Origin: Candidatus Omnitrophota bacterium
GTDB lineage: Bacteria; Omnitrophota; Gorgyraeia; VGKH01
Reading direction: 5' to 3'
Assembly (NCBI GenBank): GCA_022703055.1
Contig: JAKLEP010000001.1
Coordinates: forward strand, 410,850 to 474,849
DNA length: 64,000 bases
Each line of letters starts with the position of its first letter. Position 1 is the stretch's first letter. Positions 2,913 to 45,888 of the stretch are shown here, one piece after another. Below the pieces are notes generated by a model. The model was not told the origin of the DNA. It saw only the letters and a program-made list of their open reading frames with translations, and searched no databases. The translations under genes and the position numbers were made by a program.

Positions 2913-4307
2913 ATGGACCTAAAAATGAAGTCTATAAAACACGACACTATATGGCGTAAATTCTTATTGTCAGCTGTATTGATGTCGTTATTGCCAATAC
3001 TTCTTTTGCTTTACATAGTTTACTTTATTACCACTCCGCGCGAAGAAATTAACACTACTCAGATAAGATGGTTGATATTCTGGATCATGTGTTCTGCCAT
3101 GGCCGGGTTCTGGATCACTAAGAATATGGTGAGATCTTTTATCCAACTATCACAAGGTTTCAAGAAGGTGGCAAACGGCAACTACTCTGCAAAGCTAGAA
3201 AAAACCGACGAGGCAGGCGAGATCGATGAGCTTTCCAAAGCCTTCAATAAGATAACCTCAAGGTTGGAAGACAATATCCGCGAGCTGCAGAGATCCAAAA
3301 GGATGATACAAGATATCCTTTCCCGCGTGGGCAAGGCAGTCGCATCTTTTCAGGATATAGACAAATTCTTAGAGCTCATAGTTTTTACGACTATTGAAGC
3401 TATCGGAGCCAAAAACGGGAAATTGATGTTGACCGATGAAGAGCAAAAAGAATTAACTACCAAGATATCTTTCGGTCAAGAGCAGATACAGGATCATATA
3501 ATAAAATCAGGAGAAGGTCTGTTGGGCGCGGTTTTAAAAAAGGGTAGGCCGGCATTATTATCTAAAGCTGAAAGCGGATATGGGATGAGCGTCATCAGCG
3601 TTCCTCTCGTTTATAGCAATAGAATAAACGGAATTATTGTATTAAATGATAAAATAGATTCCAAAGATTTCTCCGAAGACGATTTATTTATTCTTAGCGA
3701 CTTGGCTAGCCACATTTCTATCGCTCTTGAGAATTATCGCTTAAGCCTGGATGTTGAGAAGACTTATATTGAAACTATCAACGCTCTTGCCATGGCGGTT
3801 GATGCCAGGGATCCTTACACAAGAGGCCATAGCAAGCGGGTCGGAGAATACTGCGAAAGAATCGCCAAAGAATTTGGTTTGGATAATGAAACTGTAAAGA
3901 TGCTTAAAGACGCTAGCATCGTACACGACATTGGCAAAATCGGAATACCCGATGAGATTTTACGTAAAACCACGCCATTAACCGAGGATGAAGTTAAGCT
4001 CATACAGCAGCATCCTTTGATAGGAGAAAATATTTTGCGGCCGATCAGATCCTTCGAGAAGTTGCGCCATTTGATTCGCTTGCATCATGAGAGGCTTAAT
4101 GGCTCGGGCTATCCAGAAGGCTTAGCTGGGAAAGACTTATCTTTGCCGCTTAAGATAATGATTGTGGCAGATGCCTTTGATGCCATGACTTCAAACAGGC
4201 CTTATCGGCAGGCAATGAGCACATTACAGGCAAAACAGGAATTACAGAAATATTCCGGCTCTCTCTTTGACAAAGAGGTAGTAGACAAGTTTGTTGAAAT
4301 AATCTAA
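2913..4307 (+). CDS. Membrane HAMP-GAF-HD-GYP domain protein (putative c-di-GMP phosphodiesterase)
   Basis: Two N-terminal TM segments, a HAMP-like coiled region and a GAF-like middle. HD-GYP signatures: HDIGKIGIP and HHERLNGSGYPEGL. Confidence 0.85.
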   Translation: MDLKMKSIKHDTIWRKFLLSAVLMSLLPILLLLYIVYFITTPREEINTTQIRWLIFWIMCSAMAGFWITKNMVRSFIQLSQGFKKVANGNYSAKLEKTDEAGEIDELSKAFNKITSRLEDNIRELQRSKRMIQDILSRVGKAVASFQDIDKFLELIVFTTIEAIGAKNGKLMLTDEEQKELTTKISFGQEQIQDHIIKSGEGLLGAVLKKGRPALLSKAESGYGMSVISVPLVYSNRINGIIVLNDKIDSKDFSEDDLFILSDLASHISIALENYRLSLDVEKTYIETINALAMAVDARDPYTRGHSKRVGEYCERIAKEFGLDNETVKMLKDASIVHDIGKIGIPDEILRKTTPLTEDEVKLIQQHPLIGENILRPIRSFEKLRHLIRLHHERLNGSGYPEGLAGKDLSLPLKIMIVADAFDAMTSNRPYRQAMSTLQAKQELQKYSGSLFDKEVVDKFVEII

Positions 4308-5369: not shown

Positions 5370-6626
5370 ATGTTTTGGTCAAAAGCATTTATTCCCACTT
5401 TAAAAGAGGCACCTCAGGATGCGGAGGCAATAAGTCATAAGCTTTTATTTAGGGCCGGAATGATCCGCATGCTTACTTCCGGTGTCTATATTTATCTTCC
5501 TTTAGGATTGATGGTCTTGGACAGGATAGAGTCGATAATTAGGGAAGAGATGAATGCTGCCGGAGCCCAAGAATTACTGTTATCATGCATTCAACCTTTG
5601 GAATTATGGAAGAAAACCGGTAGAGACGAGCAGTTGGCAGATATTATGATTCGTTTCGAGGACCGTCGGGGAAGAAACTTGTGCCTTGGTCCTACCCACG
5701 AAGAGGTAATTACGGAATTGGTGAAAAATCACGTAAATTCCTACAGGCAATTACCGGTTGTGCTATATCAGATTCAGACCAAGTTTCGCGACGAGATTCG
5801 TCCGCGCTTCGGCCTTATCCGTGCCTGCGAATTTGTAATGAAGGATGCCTATAGTTTTGACCGCGACCAGAAGGGATTGGAGAAGAATTATGAGGCGATG
5901 TTTACAGCCTATAAGAATATATTTATGCGCTGCGGGATCAAATTCTTGATTACCGAGGCAGATTCCGGAGTTATGGGCGGAAGTGTTTCGCACGAATTCA
6001 TGGTTCCGGCTCAAAGTGGAGAAGATATAGTCTTGTTTTGTAAAAAGTGTAATTTTGTAAAGACTTTAACCGAAGACAAACAAGAGAATTGTCCTCGTTG
6101 CAATACCGCTTTAGAGAAAAAACAGACCATAGAGGTAGGTCATGTTTTTCAATTAGGGACAAAATATAGCAAAGCACTGGGTGCTAATTTTCTTGATGAA
6201 AAAGGCCAGCAGCAGACGATTATCATGGGTTGTTACGGAATTGGCGTAAGTAGATTAATCTCTGCCATTATCGAGCAAAATAACGACGAGGACGGGATTA
6301 TATGGCCGCGAGAAATCAGTCCGTTTGATGTATTGGTGCTTCCTGTTCAGTCATCGAATAAAGAAGTAATGGATTTGGCTAAGAAATATTACAGCGAGCT
6401 TGTAAAGAAAGGTGCAAAAGTTTTGCTTGATGATAGGGAAGGCACGGCCGGAGTAAAATTTAAAGATGCAGACTTGATCGGCATCCCATTAAGGATTAAT
6501 ATCGGCGAAAAAAATCTTCAGAATGGCAAGGTTGAGATAAGCCTACGACGAGAAAAGAAGATAAATTTAGTGGATAAAAATAAGGTTGTGAGCGAAATTA
6601 TGAATCTTCTAAAGAAAGGTGCTTAG
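5370..6626 (+). CDS. proS: Prolyl-tRNA synthetase, bacterial type but without the INS editing domain
   Basis: Class II motif 2 FRDEIRPRFGLIRACEFVMKDAYSF and motif 3 GCYGIGVSR. Only 418 aa. A CxxC-x15-CxxC segment sits where INS normally lies. Confidence 0.9.
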   Translation: MFWSKAFIPTLKEAPQDAEAISHKLLFRAGMIRMLTSGVYIYLPLGLMVLDRIESIIREEMNAAGAQELLLSCIQPLELWKKTGRDEQLADIMIRFEDRRGRNLCLGPTHEEVITELVKNHVNSYRQLPVVLYQIQTKFRDEIRPRFGLIRACEFVMKDAYSFDRDQKGLEKNYEAMFTAYKNIFMRCGIKFLITEADSGVMGGSVSHEFMVPAQSGEDIVLFCKKCNFVKTLTEDKQENCPRCNTALEKKQTIEVGHVFQLGTKYSKALGANFLDEKGQQQTIIMGCYGIGVSRLISAIIEQNNDEDGIIWPREISPFDVLVLPVQSSNKEVMDLAKKYYSELVKKGAKVLLDDREGTAGVKFKDADLIGIPLRINIGEKNLQNGKVEISLRREKKINLVDKNKVVSEIMNLLKKGA

Positions 6627-7097: not shown

Positions 7098-8315
7098 ATG
7101 AACGGCGAACTAATTGCAATACTTGAACAGATCGAGCGCGACAAAGGCATAGACAAGGACGTGCTGCTTCAGGCTGTAGAATCAGCTTTGGTTAGCGCTG
7201 CCAAAAAGGTTTGGAAGGATGTAGACCCCGAGGCAGAAATCAAGGTAGAGCTTGATAAGGAAACAGGAAAGATCCGTGCCTTTGCCGGCAATAAAGAGAT
7301 AAAATCCAAGGATTTTGGGCGCATCGCTGCCCAGACGGCCAAGCAGGTTATCATACAGAAAATCCGCGAAGCGGAAAAGGACGTAATCTTTGGCGAATTT
7401 CAAGGTAGGGTCGGACAGATTGTTAGTGGTAGCGTTTATAGATTCGAACGAGGCAATATCATTGTCGATTTGAATAAGACTGAAGGATTTATTCCTAAAA
7501 GCGAACAGTCAGCCAAGGAAGAATTCCATCAGGGCGAGCGTATCCGCGCTTATGTTATCGATGTAAAAAAAGAATCTAAGGGCCCGCAGATAGTTCTTTC
7601 GCGTACGCATCCGAATTTGGTAAGGAAATTATTTGAACTTGAGGTTCCGGAAATTTACGAATCCATCGTTGAGATAAAATCGATTGCCCGCGAAGCGGGA
7701 GAACGCACAAAGATTGCGGTTTGGTCAAAGGATGAAAAGGTTGATTGCGTGGGTGCCTGTGTAGGAATGAGAGGCCAACGGGTAAAGAATATCGTCTTAG
7801 AATTGCACGGTGAGAAAATTGATATTGTGCGTTGGTCAGATGATAACAATGATTTTGTAGTCGCGGCTTTAAGCCCGGCCAAGATTCAAAAAATATCTTT
7901 TGATAAAGAGGCTCATCGGGCTCAGGTGATTGTCCCTGAAGACCAACTTTCTTTAGCCATTGGAAAACACGGACAGAATGTCAGGTTGGCATCAAAACTG
8001 ACAGGATGGGAGCTCGATATCCGCACTGAAGAAACCAAAGAAGAAAAGGAACCCAAAGAGCTAAAAGAGCCGAAAGAGAAAAAAGAGAAGAAAGAAAAAA
8101 GAGAAACCAAGAAAACTCTCGAGTTAACTTCGCTTACCGGCGTAGGAGCAAAGCTTGCAGAAAATCTAAAAGAGGCAGGTTTTGATAGCCTGGAGAAGAT
8201 AGCCGGATCAAATGCTGAGGAACTTTCTAAGATTAAGGGCCTAGGAAAGAAAAAGGCCGAGAATATAGTTAAAGAGGCGGGTAAGCTTGTTGGAGAGGAT
8301 GAGAAAGAGGGTTAA
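7098..8315 (+). CDS. nusA: Transcription termination/antitermination factor NusA
   Basis: S1 and KH regions (GACVGMRGQRVKNI), a KE-rich linker, then a C-terminal HhH-like segment. Confidence 0.95.
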   Translation: MNGELIAILEQIERDKGIDKDVLLQAVESALVSAAKKVWKDVDPEAEIKVELDKETGKIRAFAGNKEIKSKDFGRIAAQTAKQVIIQKIREAEKDVIFGEFQGRVGQIVSGSVYRFERGNIIVDLNKTEGFIPKSEQSAKEEFHQGERIRAYVIDVKKESKGPQIVLSRTHPNLVRKLFELEVPEIYESIVEIKSIAREAGERTKIAVWSKDEKVDCVGACVGMRGQRVKNIVLELHGEKIDIVRWSDDNNDFVVAALSPAKIQKISFDKEAHRAQVIVPEDQLSLAIGKHGQNVRLASKLTGWELDIRTEETKEEKEPKELKEPKEKKEKKEKRETKKTLELTSLTGVGAKLAENLKEAGFDSLEKIAGSNAEELSKIKGLGKKKAENIVKEAGKLVGEDEKEG

Positions 8316-43621: not shown

Positions 43622-44287
43622 ATGAAAAGATTGATTTTGGATATTGAAACTGTAGGCGTTGATTTTGATTCGCTCGACGCTGTTTCTAAGGAATATATGC
43701 TAAAATACGCCGAGGACGATAAGGAAGAAGAAGCGATTAAAGAAAGTACCAGTTTCTATCCTCTGACTGCCCAGGTTATTGTCATCGGCCTGCTTAATTC
43801 TGAAACCGACAAAGCCATAGTCTATTATCAGAATCCCAAAAAAGAAAACAAAAAAGTCGAAAACGGCGAGTTTATTTGCGGCGACGAAAAAGAAATTCTG
43901 GAGTTATTCTGGAAACAGATGTCTGATTGTGACCAGTTCGTCACTTTTAACGGCAGGATGTTTGATGCTCCGTTTTTATTGGTGCGCTCTGCCATCTTAA
44001 AGGTAAAGCCAACCAGGAATCTTATGCCCAATCGCTACGATTCTAAATTCCATGCCGATTTATTAGACCTTTTGACTTTTTACGGAGCGATGCGCAGGCG
44101 TTTTAACCTTCATATGTGGTGTAAAGCCTTTGGCATAGCCAGCTCCAAGGAGTCAGGCATCACCGGGCACGACGTAAAGAATCTTTTTAAAGATGGTAGG
44201 CATTTCGATATCGCGAAATATTGCCTTGAGGATTTGAGGGCAACCAAGGAACTTTATAAGTATTGGGAAAAATACCTGAAATTTTAG
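43622..44287 (+). CDS. RNase H-fold 3'-5' exonuclease (PolB-exonuclease-like, DEDD)
   Basis: Exo I LILDIETVG, Exo II FNGRMFDAPFL, Exo III YCLEDL. Confidence 0.75.
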   Translation: MKRLILDIETVGVDFDSLDAVSKEYMLKYAEDDKEEEAIKESTSFYPLTAQVIVIGLLNSETDKAIVYYQNPKKENKKVENGEFICGDEKEILELFWKQMSDCDQFVTFNGRMFDAPFLLVRSAILKVKPTRNLMPNRYDSKFHADLLDLLTFYGAMRRRFNLHMWCKAFGIASSKESGITGHDVKNLFKDGRHFDIAKYCLEDLRATKELYKYWEKYLKF

Positions 44288-44296
44288 CCCGAAATC

Positions 44297-44324
44297 TTGA
44301 AAATTTGGAATTTTGTGGTATACT
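44297..44324 (+). promoter_or_regulatory. Sigma-70-type promoter for the structured RNA
   Basis: TTGAAA (44297-44302), 16-nt spacer, extended -10 TGgTATACT (44316-44324). The predicted TSS lies just before the closing helix at 44332. Confidence 0.6.
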
Positions 44325-44331
44325 TTATTAT

Positions 44332-44510
44332 AGCCGATAAAGGTTATCCCCGACGAAAGTCGGGAGTCGCAAAGCCGACAGACCTAAATTGCTCCCTACA
44401 GGAGAGCTTGGCGGAGCCAAGTTAGACCGATAGCCGGTTAGGCAGAAGGAAAGAGCGATATGGTGGCTGGGTTGCCGAAGCGAAGGAGGATAGTAGATCC
44501 TTTATCGGCT
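44332..44510 (+). ncRNA. Unclassified structured RNA of about 180 nt (riboswitch-like leader or stand-alone sRNA)
   Basis: Perfect 12-bp closing helix AGCCGATAAAGG (44332-43) / CCTTTATCGGCT (44499-510). Internal hairpins include CCCGAC-GAAA-GTCGGG (44349-64) and CTTGG-CGGAG-CCAAG (44407-21). No ORF. Promoter upstream and terminator downstream. Confidence 0.5.
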
Positions 44511-44526
44511 TTATCTTTTTTATAAG

Positions 44527-44559
44527 CCTCTAACTATAAAGTTAGAGGTTTTTATTTTT
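44527..44559 (+). terminator. Intrinsic terminator between the structured RNA and the CxxCxxCC gene
   Basis: 9-bp stem CCTCTAACT / AGTTAGAGG, loop ATAA, followed by TTTTTATTTTT. Ends 8 nt before ATG 44567. Confidence 0.7.
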
Positions 44560-44566
44560 ACCAGAT

Positions 44567-44848
44567 ATGGAAGACCATTATAATAATTATCAAGAAAATA
44601 AATTAAAGGAATTTGAATCAGCCTGCCTGCGTTGCGGAAATTGCTGCGGCGCCGCCGACAACAACCCCTGTGAGCATTTAATCCCGGATAAAGACGGTAA
44701 ATATTTATGTGATATCTACGAACATAGATTCGGCCTGCATAAAGCAAAAAACGGAAACGTGTTCCTTTGTGTCCCTATAAGGAATATCCTTTTTAAGTCA
44801 TGGACCGGTTCGGAAAAATGCGCCTACAAAAAGATGCTTACTAGGTAG
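44567..44848 (+). CDS. YkgJ-family CxxCxxCC zinc/iron-chelating domain protein
   Basis: CLRCGNCCG motif plus additional Cys/His. 93 aa. No obvious SD. Confidence 0.6.
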   Translation: MEDHYNNYQENKLKEFESACLRCGNCCGAADNNPCEHLIPDKDGKYLCDIYEHRFGLHKAKNGNVFLCVPIRNILFKSWTGSEKCAYKKMLTR

Positions 44849-44928
44849 CTCTAAAATCTTACCCAAAAATTCTCTCAATAATAACTATTTTGTGATATAA
44901 TAACTTCACCTTAAGGAGGGCAATAATC

Positions 44929-45888
44929 ATGTTTGGTTTGAAAATAAGAATGTATTTATTGACTATCATATTGTTTGCCGTTGTGTATGCGATAGTCTCC
45001 ATGCTGTCCTATTCGGTATTCGGCATCGGAGATTTTTATTTTTATCTGGTTTTGTCGCTGGTATTTATGTTTATCCAATATATGGTAGGGCCGAAACTAG
45101 TGGAATGGTCCATGCATATACGTTACGTGAACCAGAATGAGTATCCGCAGCTGCACCAGATGGTGGCTGAGCTTGCACAGAAGGCAAGAATACCCAAGCC
45201 CAAAATCGGCATTGCCCAGATTTCCTTGCCAAATGCATTTGCCTACGGCCGATGGAAGTCCGACGGCAGAGTCTGTGTAACCCAAGGCATACTGGATTTA
45301 TTAAGCCCGGATGAATTACGCGCGGTTTTAGGCCATGAGATGACTCATTTGAAAAACCGCGACGTGCTTTTTATTACGTTGCTTTCGGTTGTACCTATGA
45401 TTCTTTATCGTATTTTCTGGAGTTTGATGTTTTATCGGGGCGGTTCAAGACGAAGTGACAGCGGCTACGTCGCGCTGGTGGGGCTGGCGGCGCTTATTTT
45501 CTATTTTATCACCAATCTTTTAGTTCTATACGCCTCGAGGATCAGGGAATATTTTGCTGACAGAGGTTCTGTTGCTTTAGGCAATCCCGCGCCTGAGCTA
45601 GCCACCGCGCTCTATAAACTTGTTTACGGCTCGGCCCGCATGCCCAAAGATGCTTTAAGGCAGGTCGAGGGCCTGAAGGCATTTTTCTTGAATGATCCTT
45701 CGCGCGGTTTAAAGGAATTACATGAGCTAAGAGAATTAGATTTGGATAGAAGTGGCACAATCGACGCCAATGAGCTTCTCGCCATAAGGACCAAGACTGT
45801 CAGGCTTTCTTTCGGCGACAAGGTTATGGAATTGATGAGCACCCATCCCAATATGCTTAAGCGTATAAAAAGGCTCTCTTCAGCCTAA
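44929..45888 (+). CDS. htpX: M48-family membrane zinc protease HtpX
   Basis: HEMTHLKNRD (HExxH), four TM segments, extended -10 TGaTATAAT and AGGAGG RBS upstream. Confidence 0.9.
   Translation: MFGLKIRMYLLTIILFAVVYAIVSMLSYSVFGIGDFYFYLVLSLVFMFIQYMVGPKLVEWSMHIRYVNQNEYPQLHQMVAELAQKARIPKPKIGIAQISLPNAFAYGRWKSDGRVCVTQGILDLLSPDELRAVLGHEMTHLKNRDVLFITLLSVVPMILYRIFWSLMFYRGGSRRSDSGYVALVGLAALIFYFITNLLVLYASRIREYFADRGSVALGNPAPELATALYKLVYGSARMPKDALRQVEGLKAFFLNDPSRGLKELHELRELDLDRSGTIDANELLAIRTKTVRLSFGDKVMELMSTHPNMLKRIKRLSSA

Follow-up and report, generated by a model that had tools for sequence, protein, structure and literature searches.

The window analysed here is a stretch of 64,000 nt of contig JAKLEP010000001.1 (assembly GCA_022703055.1) from a Candidatus Omnitrophota bacterium, and the element under study is a structured RNA encoded directly upstream of the gene for a 93-aa cysteine-rich protein. 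At this locus a predicted promoter is followed by a long folded region, a run of U residues, an intrinsic terminator and then the ATG of the gene. A preliminary description of the same DNA had offered the RNA as a riboswitch-like leader or an independent small RNA (sRNA), such as a 6S-like RNA, and had noted a partial likeness to the Vc2 aptamer for cyclic di-GMP (c-di-GMP). We report that the RNA transcribed from about position 44332 is almost certainly a c-di-GMP-I (GEMM-I) riboswitch, present in an enlarged form, and we weigh how it may act on the gene that follows.

Scanning the whole window against Rfam at curated thresholds gave a sole match, to RF01051 (c-di-GMP-I), at 44332-44479 on the plus strand. 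It scored 41.2 bits against a gathering score of 35 and spanned all 87 model positions (1-87), with E = 1.2e-4 over the 64-kb window and 6.9e-7 when the 371 nt of 44250-44620 were searched. When that region was scanned permissively, everything beyond RF01051 was at chance level (E ≥ 0.24). The likeness to Vc2 is thus a true family match above the gathering score, and the 6S-like option falls away, as no other Rfam family reached threshold. A confident match to an ordinary known family was also the outcome that the preliminary description had named as telling against its own proposal, and the scan it suggested returned just that. The region 44328-44566 folds better than all 200 of its dinucleotide shuffles (z = -4.2), and the open reading frames (ORFs) that overlap the RNA are trivial (42 aa with a TTG start, and 30 aa). 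With a covariance model made from an alignment of 31 relatives, the element scores 140.9 bits and is a single copy in the 64 kb. On every point of GEMM-I membership that can be checked in silico the RNA agrees with the class; it is a further member of a known riboswitch class, and its departures from the textbook form (Table 1) leave that class unchanged. It appears over-long because the distal receptor helix carries a branched insertion of 61 nt and the closing helix has its 3' strand set off by a linker of about 20 nt. Of the two options first put forward, the riboswitch class has been borne out by RF01051, and a stand-alone RNA is a live minority reading that is taken up below.

Table 1 Features of the c-di-GMP-I riboswitch locus (positions in the window).
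Feature	Position	Strand	Details
Sigma-70-type promoter, extended -10 (predicted)	44297-44324	+	TTGAAA 44297-44302, 16-nt spacer, TG 44316-17, TATACT 44319-24
Closing helix, 5' strand ("P1-long")	44332-44343	+	AGCCGATAAAGG; perfect complement of 44499-44510; covariation
Tetraloop hairpin (Vc2 P1b, Rfam P1)	44343-44370	+	Stem 44349-54/44359-64, GAAA loop 44355-58; Rfam alignment
Junction AA	44371-44372	+	A44371 = A47 equivalent; invariant in 31 members
Receptor helix, 5' strand (Vc2 P2, also P3)	44373-44394	+	AGCC, CAG and ACC pair with 44462-73
Branched insertion, lineage-specific	44395-44452	+	Distal receptor helix; includes AGTTAGA 44420-26
Receptor helix, 3' strand, and aptamer 3' tail	44453-44479	+	G44466 = G83 equivalent, C44475 = C92 equivalent
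Purine-rich linker	44480-44498	+	Between aptamer core and closing-helix 3' strand; sequence and length vary in relatives
Closing helix, 3' strand	44499-44510	+	CCTTTATCGGCT; pairs perfectly with 44332-43
U-run	44511-44521	+	TTATCTTTTTT; directly after closing helix; with helix, proposed first terminator (T1)
Intrinsic terminator T2	44524-44559	+	12-bp stem 44524-35/44540-51, loop ATAA, tail TTATTTTT; -14.8 kcal/mol
93-aa cysteine-rich protein gene	44567-44848	+	CxxCGxCC; ATG 7 nt after T2 tail

Relatives of the RNA were collected by scanning one genome per species for the GEMM-I core motifs together with a receptor helix at least 35 nt above consensus length. This gave 62 loci, about 35 of them from metagenome-assembled genomes (MAGs) of Omnitrophota; the remaining loci are labelled Planctomycetia, Elusimicrobia, Armatimonadota, Gammaproteobacteria and others, three or four being chance matches in coding DNA. 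A scan of metagenomes with GTTAGACCGNNNNNCGGTTAGG returned nine loci, namely three true relatives and six chance matches. About 40 loci, mostly from Omnitrophota MAGs, share a fixed plan: a -10-like hexamer, the 5' strand (A)GCCGAUAARGG, a tetraloop hairpin, an extended receptor helix and the tail ...GGGUUGCCGA, followed on the 3' side by a linker, the 3' strand CCUUUAUCGGCU and a U-run. The closing-helix consensus of this long form is AGCCGAUAARGG / CCUUUAUCGGCU, and the linker mostly measures 13-38 nt (range 2-3 to 88 nt), often with a small hairpin in it. The preliminary description had called for a covariation check in relatives, and the helices are indeed conserved with compensatory changes. 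In the core alignment of 31 long-form sequences, paired cells make up 96.8% and both sides have changed in 19 of 34 pairs, which none of 500 shuffles reaches; slid controls are 27-48% paired.

By its sequence the aptamer is of the standard three-helix design, comprising the closing helix, the GAAA tetraloop hairpin and the tetraloop-receptor helix. Besides the full-length model match, it shares with Vc2 and RF01051 the GAAA hairpin (which the preliminary description had correctly placed at 44349-64), the CCUAAA/UAUGG receptor, the GCAAAG junction and the ...GGGUUGCCGA tail. The tetraloop hairpin is closed by G44343-C44370 and U44344-G44369 and shows compensatory changes in relatives; its internal loop is UAU/GUC, unlike the AAA/GAC of Vc2 and of the consensus. 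CCTAAA (44383-88) and TATGG (44459-63) form the two halves of the tetraloop receptor, beyond which the distal stem TTGCTC (44389-94) pairs with 44453-58, with all six distal pairs covarying in the family. Both the tetraloop hairpin and the receptor helix covary in relatives and are predicted to dock, and in the 3' region of the aptamer GGGTTGCCGA is nearly invariant in the family.

The positions that contact the ligand are also kept. Vc2 numbering was transferred via the Rfam alignment and the Vc2 pairs given in PMC11705072, where the ligand guanine gI pairs with C92, the imino proton of G20 contacts gII, and C44-G83 is an inter-helix pair. The equivalents in the window are G44342 (G20), A44371 (A47) and C44475 (C92), three columns that are invariant in the 31 sequences, while the C44-G83 pair corresponds in the Rfam alignment to C44368, within the tetraloop hairpin, and G44466. 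In the Vc2 crystal structures A47, the residue to which A44371 is aligned, is intercalated between the two ligand guanines. Because tetraloop and receptor are present and the G20, A47 and C92 equivalents are kept, the predicted ligand is c-di-GMP. The related subclass for 3',3'-cyclic GMP-AMP (3',3'-cGAMP; GEMM-Ib), defined by A in place of G20, was considered and rejected, as the window and all 31 aligned relatives have G at this column; in this invariant G the family differs from the pilM riboswitch of Geobacter, which carries the A.

At the tip of the receptor helix the Rfam alignment places 61 nt (a domain of 58-61 nt) where the consensus, like Vc2, has a 3-nt loop. Whole-leader thermodynamic folding was too variable among orthologues to define the structure of this insertion, and from the insertion by itself MAFFT with RNAalifold could recover no more than the closing stem and parts of the hairpins; comparative analysis of an alignment of the nine closest sequences was used instead, in which 11 of 57 pairs show double changes. 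In the window the insertion is closed by the stem UUGCUC/GAGCGA, with two compensatory pairs, after which comes a variable A-rich strand. Hairpin A (44407-12/44416-21) likewise has two compensatory pairs, and its sequences are quite different in the related loci L043, L060 and L068. A short spacer leads to hairpin B (44426-29/44435-38) and then to a conserved UAGGC (44439-43), both nearly invariant in the nine closest relatives, so that there is too little variation for covariation. In other sub-families the extension is a long, irregular hairpin with ...AAGCC...GGUUAG(N)AGGC..., or is branched in another way. The insertion is probably a structural elaboration of a peripheral helix. Within it, UUAGG at 44438-44442, overlapping the UAGGC element, is perfectly complementary to the receptor half CCUAA (44383-44387), and L043 has the closing-stem partner AGGCAA twice; given both, alternative registers of the receptor helix are conceivable.

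The closing helix, formed from the two ends of the aptamer as in Vc2, departs further from that model. The perfect 12-bp helix that had been noted between 44332-43 and 44499-510 is real, has a predicted stability of -18.6 kcal/mol (-6.6 to -8.5 kcal/mol for the outer 5-6 bp alone) and covaries. In Vc2, P1a consists of G11-C97, A12-U96, C13-G94 and G14-C93 (PMC11705072). On this numbering 44332-36 correspond to the 5' strand of P1a (G14 = 44336, the top of P1a), 44337-41 to junction nucleotides 15-19, 44342 to G20 and 44343 to G21. The inner segment 44337-43, paired with 44499-505, thus extends over the junction nucleotides and the G20 equivalent; the Vc2 junction nucleotides and G20 are not paired with the 3' strand, unlike 44337-42 here. 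A further difference is that the 3' strand lies about 20 nt downstream of the C92 equivalent, where in Vc2 the two adjoin. Across the 31 sequences the helix 44332-42/44500-10 is 96.2% paired, with double changes in six of 11 tested pairs. Of the inner columns, 10-207 is AU in 17 sequences, GU in 8 and GC in 5, and 11-206 is GC in 29 and GU in 2; these pairings show selection on the inner helix, including the G20 equivalent.

Directly after the helix comes the U-rich tract that the preliminary description had remarked on, at 44511-21. Counts for the closing helix, the U-run and the -10 hexamer were taken over 40 family members, and at least six U within 10 nt after the helix were found in 33 of them, against a background of 7% among 10-mers of the same loci. 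In L060, L068 and L080, where the cysteine-rich gene likewise follows the RNA, the closing helix and U-run are the only terminator signal ahead of it. Helix and U-run together would therefore be a terminator in their own right, which we call T1. The linker in front of the 3' strand can fold locally with it (44481-91/44497-507, -9.8 kcal/mol); this hairpin beats shuffled linkers in the window, L071 and L043, with no enrichment across the family. Two roles for the linker were tried and rejected. One was imitation of the 5' strand, so as to capture CCUUU when ligand is bound; across 39 members, 2.56 of six inner nucleotides are paired, against 2.93 with shuffled linkers. The other was a ribosome-binding site; the AAGGAGG of the linker has no start codon after it and is not conserved in sequence.

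We favour, with a rough probability of 0.45, a reading in which the closing helix and U-run act as a terminator that competes with the ligand, giving an ON switch, with T2 as a second terminator. Formation of the inner helix and binding of c-di-GMP would be mutually exclusive, because the inner half pairs the G20 equivalent, whose imino proton contacts the ligand. Until the 3' strand has been transcribed, the inner 5' strand is predicted to stay about 80% unpaired, so the emerging 3' strand could zip up the helix by default. Without c-di-GMP, then, the 3' strand would zip onto the free 5' strand and transcription would stop near 44515-44521. If c-di-GMP were already bound, the inner 6-7 pairs would be blocked, only the outer helix of 5-6 bp would form, and more polymerases would read through. 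T2, apparently constitutive, would limit read-through into the cysteine-rich gene.

T2 itself is conserved in the window and in L005, L017, L007, L016 and L071. The preliminary description had seen a canonical terminator ending 8 nt before the ATG; the terminator is genuine (stem 44524-44551, tail to 44559), and the gap to the ATG at 44567 is 7 nt. It had also pointed out that AGTTAGA occurs at both 44420-26 and 44540-46, which is the case, and had proposed on this ground that T2 is the regulated terminator, with AGUUAGA in the insertion (44420-26) pairing as an anti-terminator with UCUAACU (44529-35) in the T2 5' arm. A possible extension of this pairing, added in the present analysis, joins AGGC (44440-43) to GCCU (44526-29) across hairpin B. 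The complementarity does exist, as 7 bp or as 6 + 4 bp around hairpin B, all Watson-Crick in the window, and 85.7% of cells are paired in the seven relatives that have T2. It nevertheless shows no informative covariation, with 20-62 of 500 shuffles reaching the observed measures; the duplex, at -10.0 kcal/mol, is only at z = -1.2 against shuffled arms, and none of 20 members with a second terminator shows significant pairing of its insertion with the T2 5' arm. Individual relatives argue the same way: L071 and L080 carry GGUUAAACC, in which a G-to-A change creates an uncompensated central A-C mismatch, L043 keeps CCGGUUAGGC beside an unrelated T2, and L080 keeps the insertion and has no T2. 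The distal tip of the receptor helix is, moreover, not expected to sense ligand occupancy. We regard the anti-terminator as very improbable, and its extension across hairpin B as equally so. Other partners for the T2 5' arm were sought in the same 20 members (closing-helix 5' strand with tetraloop hairpin, insertion, linker and closing-helix 3' strand) and gave mean z values of -0.4 to -1.2, none of them consistent. A pairing of GGCUUUAU with AUAAGCC in the window (z = -2.9) was rejected as a T2 antagonist, since it is not conserved in L005, L017 and L016.

Several points weigh against the ON switch at T1. The design is unconventional, and we found no characterised example in the literature of a terminator with a 155-nt folded aptamer as its "loop". 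Ligand binding, the transcription start and the 3' ends, termination at T1 and the direction of the switch are predicted, like every step beyond sequence and covariation. The outer helix of 5-6 bp beside the U-run might terminate equally well with ligand, leaving T1 unregulated, and so might the local linker hairpin. With T2 strong and no conserved anti-terminator found for it, regulation at T1 would be largely masked, as for the Bc1 riboswitch discussed below. Finally, some related loci have a terminator and a new promoter after the RNA, or a convergent gene, which fits a self-contained RNA better than a leader.

The direction of switching is a further point of this kind. If the ligand needs and stabilises the closing helix, as it does P1a in Vc2, the RNA would be an OFF switch: c-di-GMP would organise the junction and stabilise the closing helix as the stem of T1, and high c-di-GMP would stop transcription before the gene. 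Precedents for this exist, as in Vc2 ligand binding accompanies P1a formation and expression is repressed (PMC11705072), and Cd1 switches transcription OFF (PMC9262584); the helix in the window also has its outer 5 bp where P1a lies in Vc2. A GEMM-I RNA in Paenibacillus piri (L050:3490-3635) has a 9-bp closing helix, AACCACCGA/TCGGTGGTT, outside the junction and a U-run directly after it, which is what an OFF design predicts; from its sequence, it looks to be a simpler case, outside Omnitrophota, of a closing helix used as a terminator stem. In the window, however, the helix spans the G20 equivalent and five junction nucleotides, and these inner pairs covary. At 12 bp and -18.6 kcal/mol it should form without ligand, its inner half excludes ligand, and by prediction its 5' strand is still free when the 3' strand emerges, so that stabilisation by the ligand is hard to see. 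We consider an OFF switch unlikely.

Whether the RNA is a leader at all is best judged from its surroundings. The 93-aa protein is identical in two NCBI MAGs and two JGI bioreactor metagenomes, where the leader is 100% identical too, and its homologues are annotated Candidatus Omnitrophica or Omnitrophota. The contig is present in the JGI anaerobic-digester samples 3300009838 and 3300009776. In diverged loci the RNA keeps its position and orientation (identity of the downstream protein 91% in L005, 72% in L007, 68% in L071 and 65% in L080), within a synteny of exonuclease gene, RNA, cysteine-rich gene, HtpX gene (in some), 99-aa zinc-ribbon gene and M20 peptidase gene. These orthologous RNAs score 38.7-45.6 bits with RF01051, and all have the same insertion of about 60 nt. 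Such constancy speaks against a stand-alone sRNA that binds c-di-GMP, always terminates at T1 or T2 and acts other than by attenuation, because orientation and position relative to the gene are kept across protein identities from 91% down to about 55%. It is also at odds with the window, whose gene starts 7 nt after T2 without a recognisable promoter or Shine-Dalgarno sequence, and with L060, L068 and L080: since only the closing helix and U-run lie between RNA and gene there, the gene must be transcribed through the RNA.

The stand-alone reading nonetheless draws support from the RNA itself, whose predicted start is the first base of the closing helix, whose 5' and 3' ends are paired and which is followed by two terminators, with no conserved anti-terminator found for T2. 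Among the Omnitrophota-labelled loci listed, no MAG occurs twice. Further support comes from three other arrangements in the family. In a group that includes L022, L027, L028, L048, L056 and L079, and also L072, the downstream genes encode GH1 beta-glucosidase and have an extended -10 promoter beyond a strong second terminator; in L048:1296-1400, for example, the terminator 3' arm (GTTGGGA) lies 17 nt before the extended -10 box GTGCTATAAT and supplies a -35-like TTGGGA. The GH1 gene is thus served by a promoter of its own, which shares sequence with the terminator of the riboswitch unit. In L043 (downstream of 5237), L030 and L063 an extended -10 box (TGCTATAAT or TGGTATAAT) stands after T2, and the ATG comes as little as 6-8 nt later, pointing to leaderless mRNAs in the Omnitrophota lineages concerned. 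In L067 a long-form RNA on the minus strand (7402-7572), with its own TGGTATAAT promoter, is convergent with the plus-strand ORF L067:5966-7420, which encodes a 484-aa REC-GGDEF-MshEN protein of the diguanylate cyclase type. The same arrangement occurs in L021, L026, L039, L040, L045, L047, L058, L061, L064, L073 and L075, making 12 MAGs in which the RNA cannot be the leader of that gene. Here the closing-helix 3' strand and U-run overlap the last ~19 nt of the GGDEF ORF (...RADKGF*), and antisense read-through controlled by c-di-GMP could be a feedback on c-di-GMP synthesis. For the locus in the window we judge a stand-alone sRNA unlikely; it might act as a c-di-GMP buffer, by ligand-dependent stability or partner binding via the insertion, or by transcriptional interference. 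The ON switch at T1 stays our preferred reading of the window.

Two other variations were seen in the family. Two family-model matches lie on the same strand, 130-150 nt apart, in three loci (L038:5306-5537 and 5670-5836; L069:577-687 and 838-1018; L057:486-649 and 797-976), apparently as tandem aptamers. In L065, L028 and L054 a large insertion is found inside the tetraloop hairpin instead.

Known riboswitches offer partial parallels. In contrast to Vc2, which is described as translational, control in the window is probably transcriptional. The c-di-GMP-I riboswitch Bc1 of Bacillus thuringiensis has dual terminators: c-di-GMP unfolds the first, and the second remains folded, masking the response (PMC11218506). 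The GEMM-I aptamer in the window would likewise have two rho-independent terminators after it, spaced by a few tens of nucleotides, the first of them putative, and is proposed to behave as Bc1 does. Both terminators of Bc1 are ordinary hairpins downstream of the aptamer, whereas T1 would consist of the closing helix of the aptamer itself plus a U-run; organism and gene are also unrelated. The Geobacter pilM riboswitch for 3',3'-cGAMP is a transcriptional ON switch in which aptamer and terminator are mutually exclusive (PMC9262584). Its aptamer fold is homologous and the same ON logic is proposed here for T1; its terminator is made from the 3' aptamer strand and downstream strands, whereas T1 would use the 5' aptamer strand and one downstream strand. 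Sharing of the same nucleotides by aptamer and terminator stem is also found in the HMP-PP (thiS) riboswitch (PMC6478431), which has an unrelated ligand and fold and a tiny aptamer inside a classic hairpin terminator, while in the window a 155-nt aptamer is enclosed by the stem.

The extended -10 promoter that the preliminary description had placed before the helix is present as TTGAAA-16-TG-TATACT. It agrees with the consensus at 10 of 12 positions and has the TG extension, although such a match is by itself at chance level (four promoter-like sites in the region, 4.1 expected). Its significance comes from its conservation in relatives and not from the match score: it is conserved in the orthologues L005 and L007, and in most of the 40 family members a -10-like hexamer begins 11-13 nt ahead of the first base of the closing helix. 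From this position, transcription is predicted to start at about 44331-44332, on that first base. A complementarity between 44322-44333 (ACTTTAT...) and the T2 loop with its adjoining arm (44530-44542) amounts to 7 bp in the window, 11 bp in L007 and L016 and 10 bp in L005, changing in step across three lineages. We rejected it as a functional pairing, since it falls before the predicted start of transcription and L071 does not have it; the probable source is repetition of CUUUAU/AUAAAG elements.

Eight cysteines of the 93-aa protein are invariant, those of CxxCGxCC (within CxRCGxCCG) and four more, as is one histidine. No Shine-Dalgarno sequence lies within 5-12 nt of the ATG at 44567, in agreement with the preliminary description, and the nearest GAGG is 18 nt upstream, in the T2 3' arm. 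Nor did we find a convincing promoter of the gene's own; a TTTACC-16-TATAAT match lies inside the ORF. The gene had been called YkgJ-type on account of its CxxCxxCC motif, and this motif is present and invariant, but the match to PF03692 is not significant (E = 5.5; 8.2 bits, cut-off 23). Some homologues carry the JGI name "YcgN (CxxCxxCC family)", and the YkgJ label is, on present sequence grounds, a resemblance at the level of the motif rather than demonstrated membership. A profile search gave 639 homologues at E ≤ 0.001, almost all of about 90-105 aa and, where named, from Omnitrophota; no Pfam domain was found in the 93-aa protein or in any of 120 listed homologues. Members of the protein family also occur in unrelated contexts without the riboswitch (L081-L084). 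One follows a PilZ-domain gene (L082) and another precedes a response regulator and a T2SSE ATPase (L081), contexts which hint at a link between the protein family and c-di-GMP signalling.

Downstream in the window lies an HtpX-like M48 protease gene (44929-45888). It has an extended -10 box of its own, TTTGTGATATAAT, and a strong ribosome-binding site, AAGGAGG (44884-44931), and it need not be co-regulated with the riboswitch-controlled gene. The C-terminal part of the HtpX-like protein has weak EF-hand matches. The HD-GYP gene mentioned in the preliminary description is at 2913-4307 and encodes a HAMP-GAF-HD_5 protein, that is, an HD-GYP-type phosphodiesterase. Because the window encodes such a protein, c-di-GMP turnover in this organism is plausible; a REC-GGDEF gene is present in relatives.

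The RNA departs from textbook GEMM-I in four ways, namely the branched insertion, the displaced and elongated closing helix, the U-run after that helix and the second terminator. Common to a lineage of about 40 MAGs, these departures may represent an uncharacterised expression-platform design. A wider proposal, which we hold tentatively and think somewhat unlikely as a whole, is that Omnitrophota carry a distinct long-form GEMM-I RNA as a transcription unit of its own, with fixed -10 spacing, a closing helix/terminator that sequesters G20, and a receptor extension. With an aptamer-enclosing, ligand-antagonised ON terminator, this RNA would serve different lineages in different ways: as a leader, as an insulated upstream unit, or in convergent antisense orientation to a diguanylate cyclase gene, with negative feedback on c-di-GMP synthesis.

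The enlarged form is barely detected by the Rfam model (38.7-45.6 bits against 35), and members with slightly larger insertions are probably missed in routine annotation. If the closing helix is indeed a terminator that competes with the ligand, GEMM-I would have a compact kind of expression platform that has so far not been characterised in this class, and the convergent REC-GGDEF arrangement would be a candidate RNA-based feedback loop on c-di-GMP synthesis. Annotation of a c-di-GMP-I riboswitch at 44332-44559 links c-di-GMP signalling in this uncultured bacterium to a small, widespread and uncharacterised cysteine-rich protein, and possibly also to the downstream genes for HtpX, the zinc-ribbon protein and the M20 peptidase.

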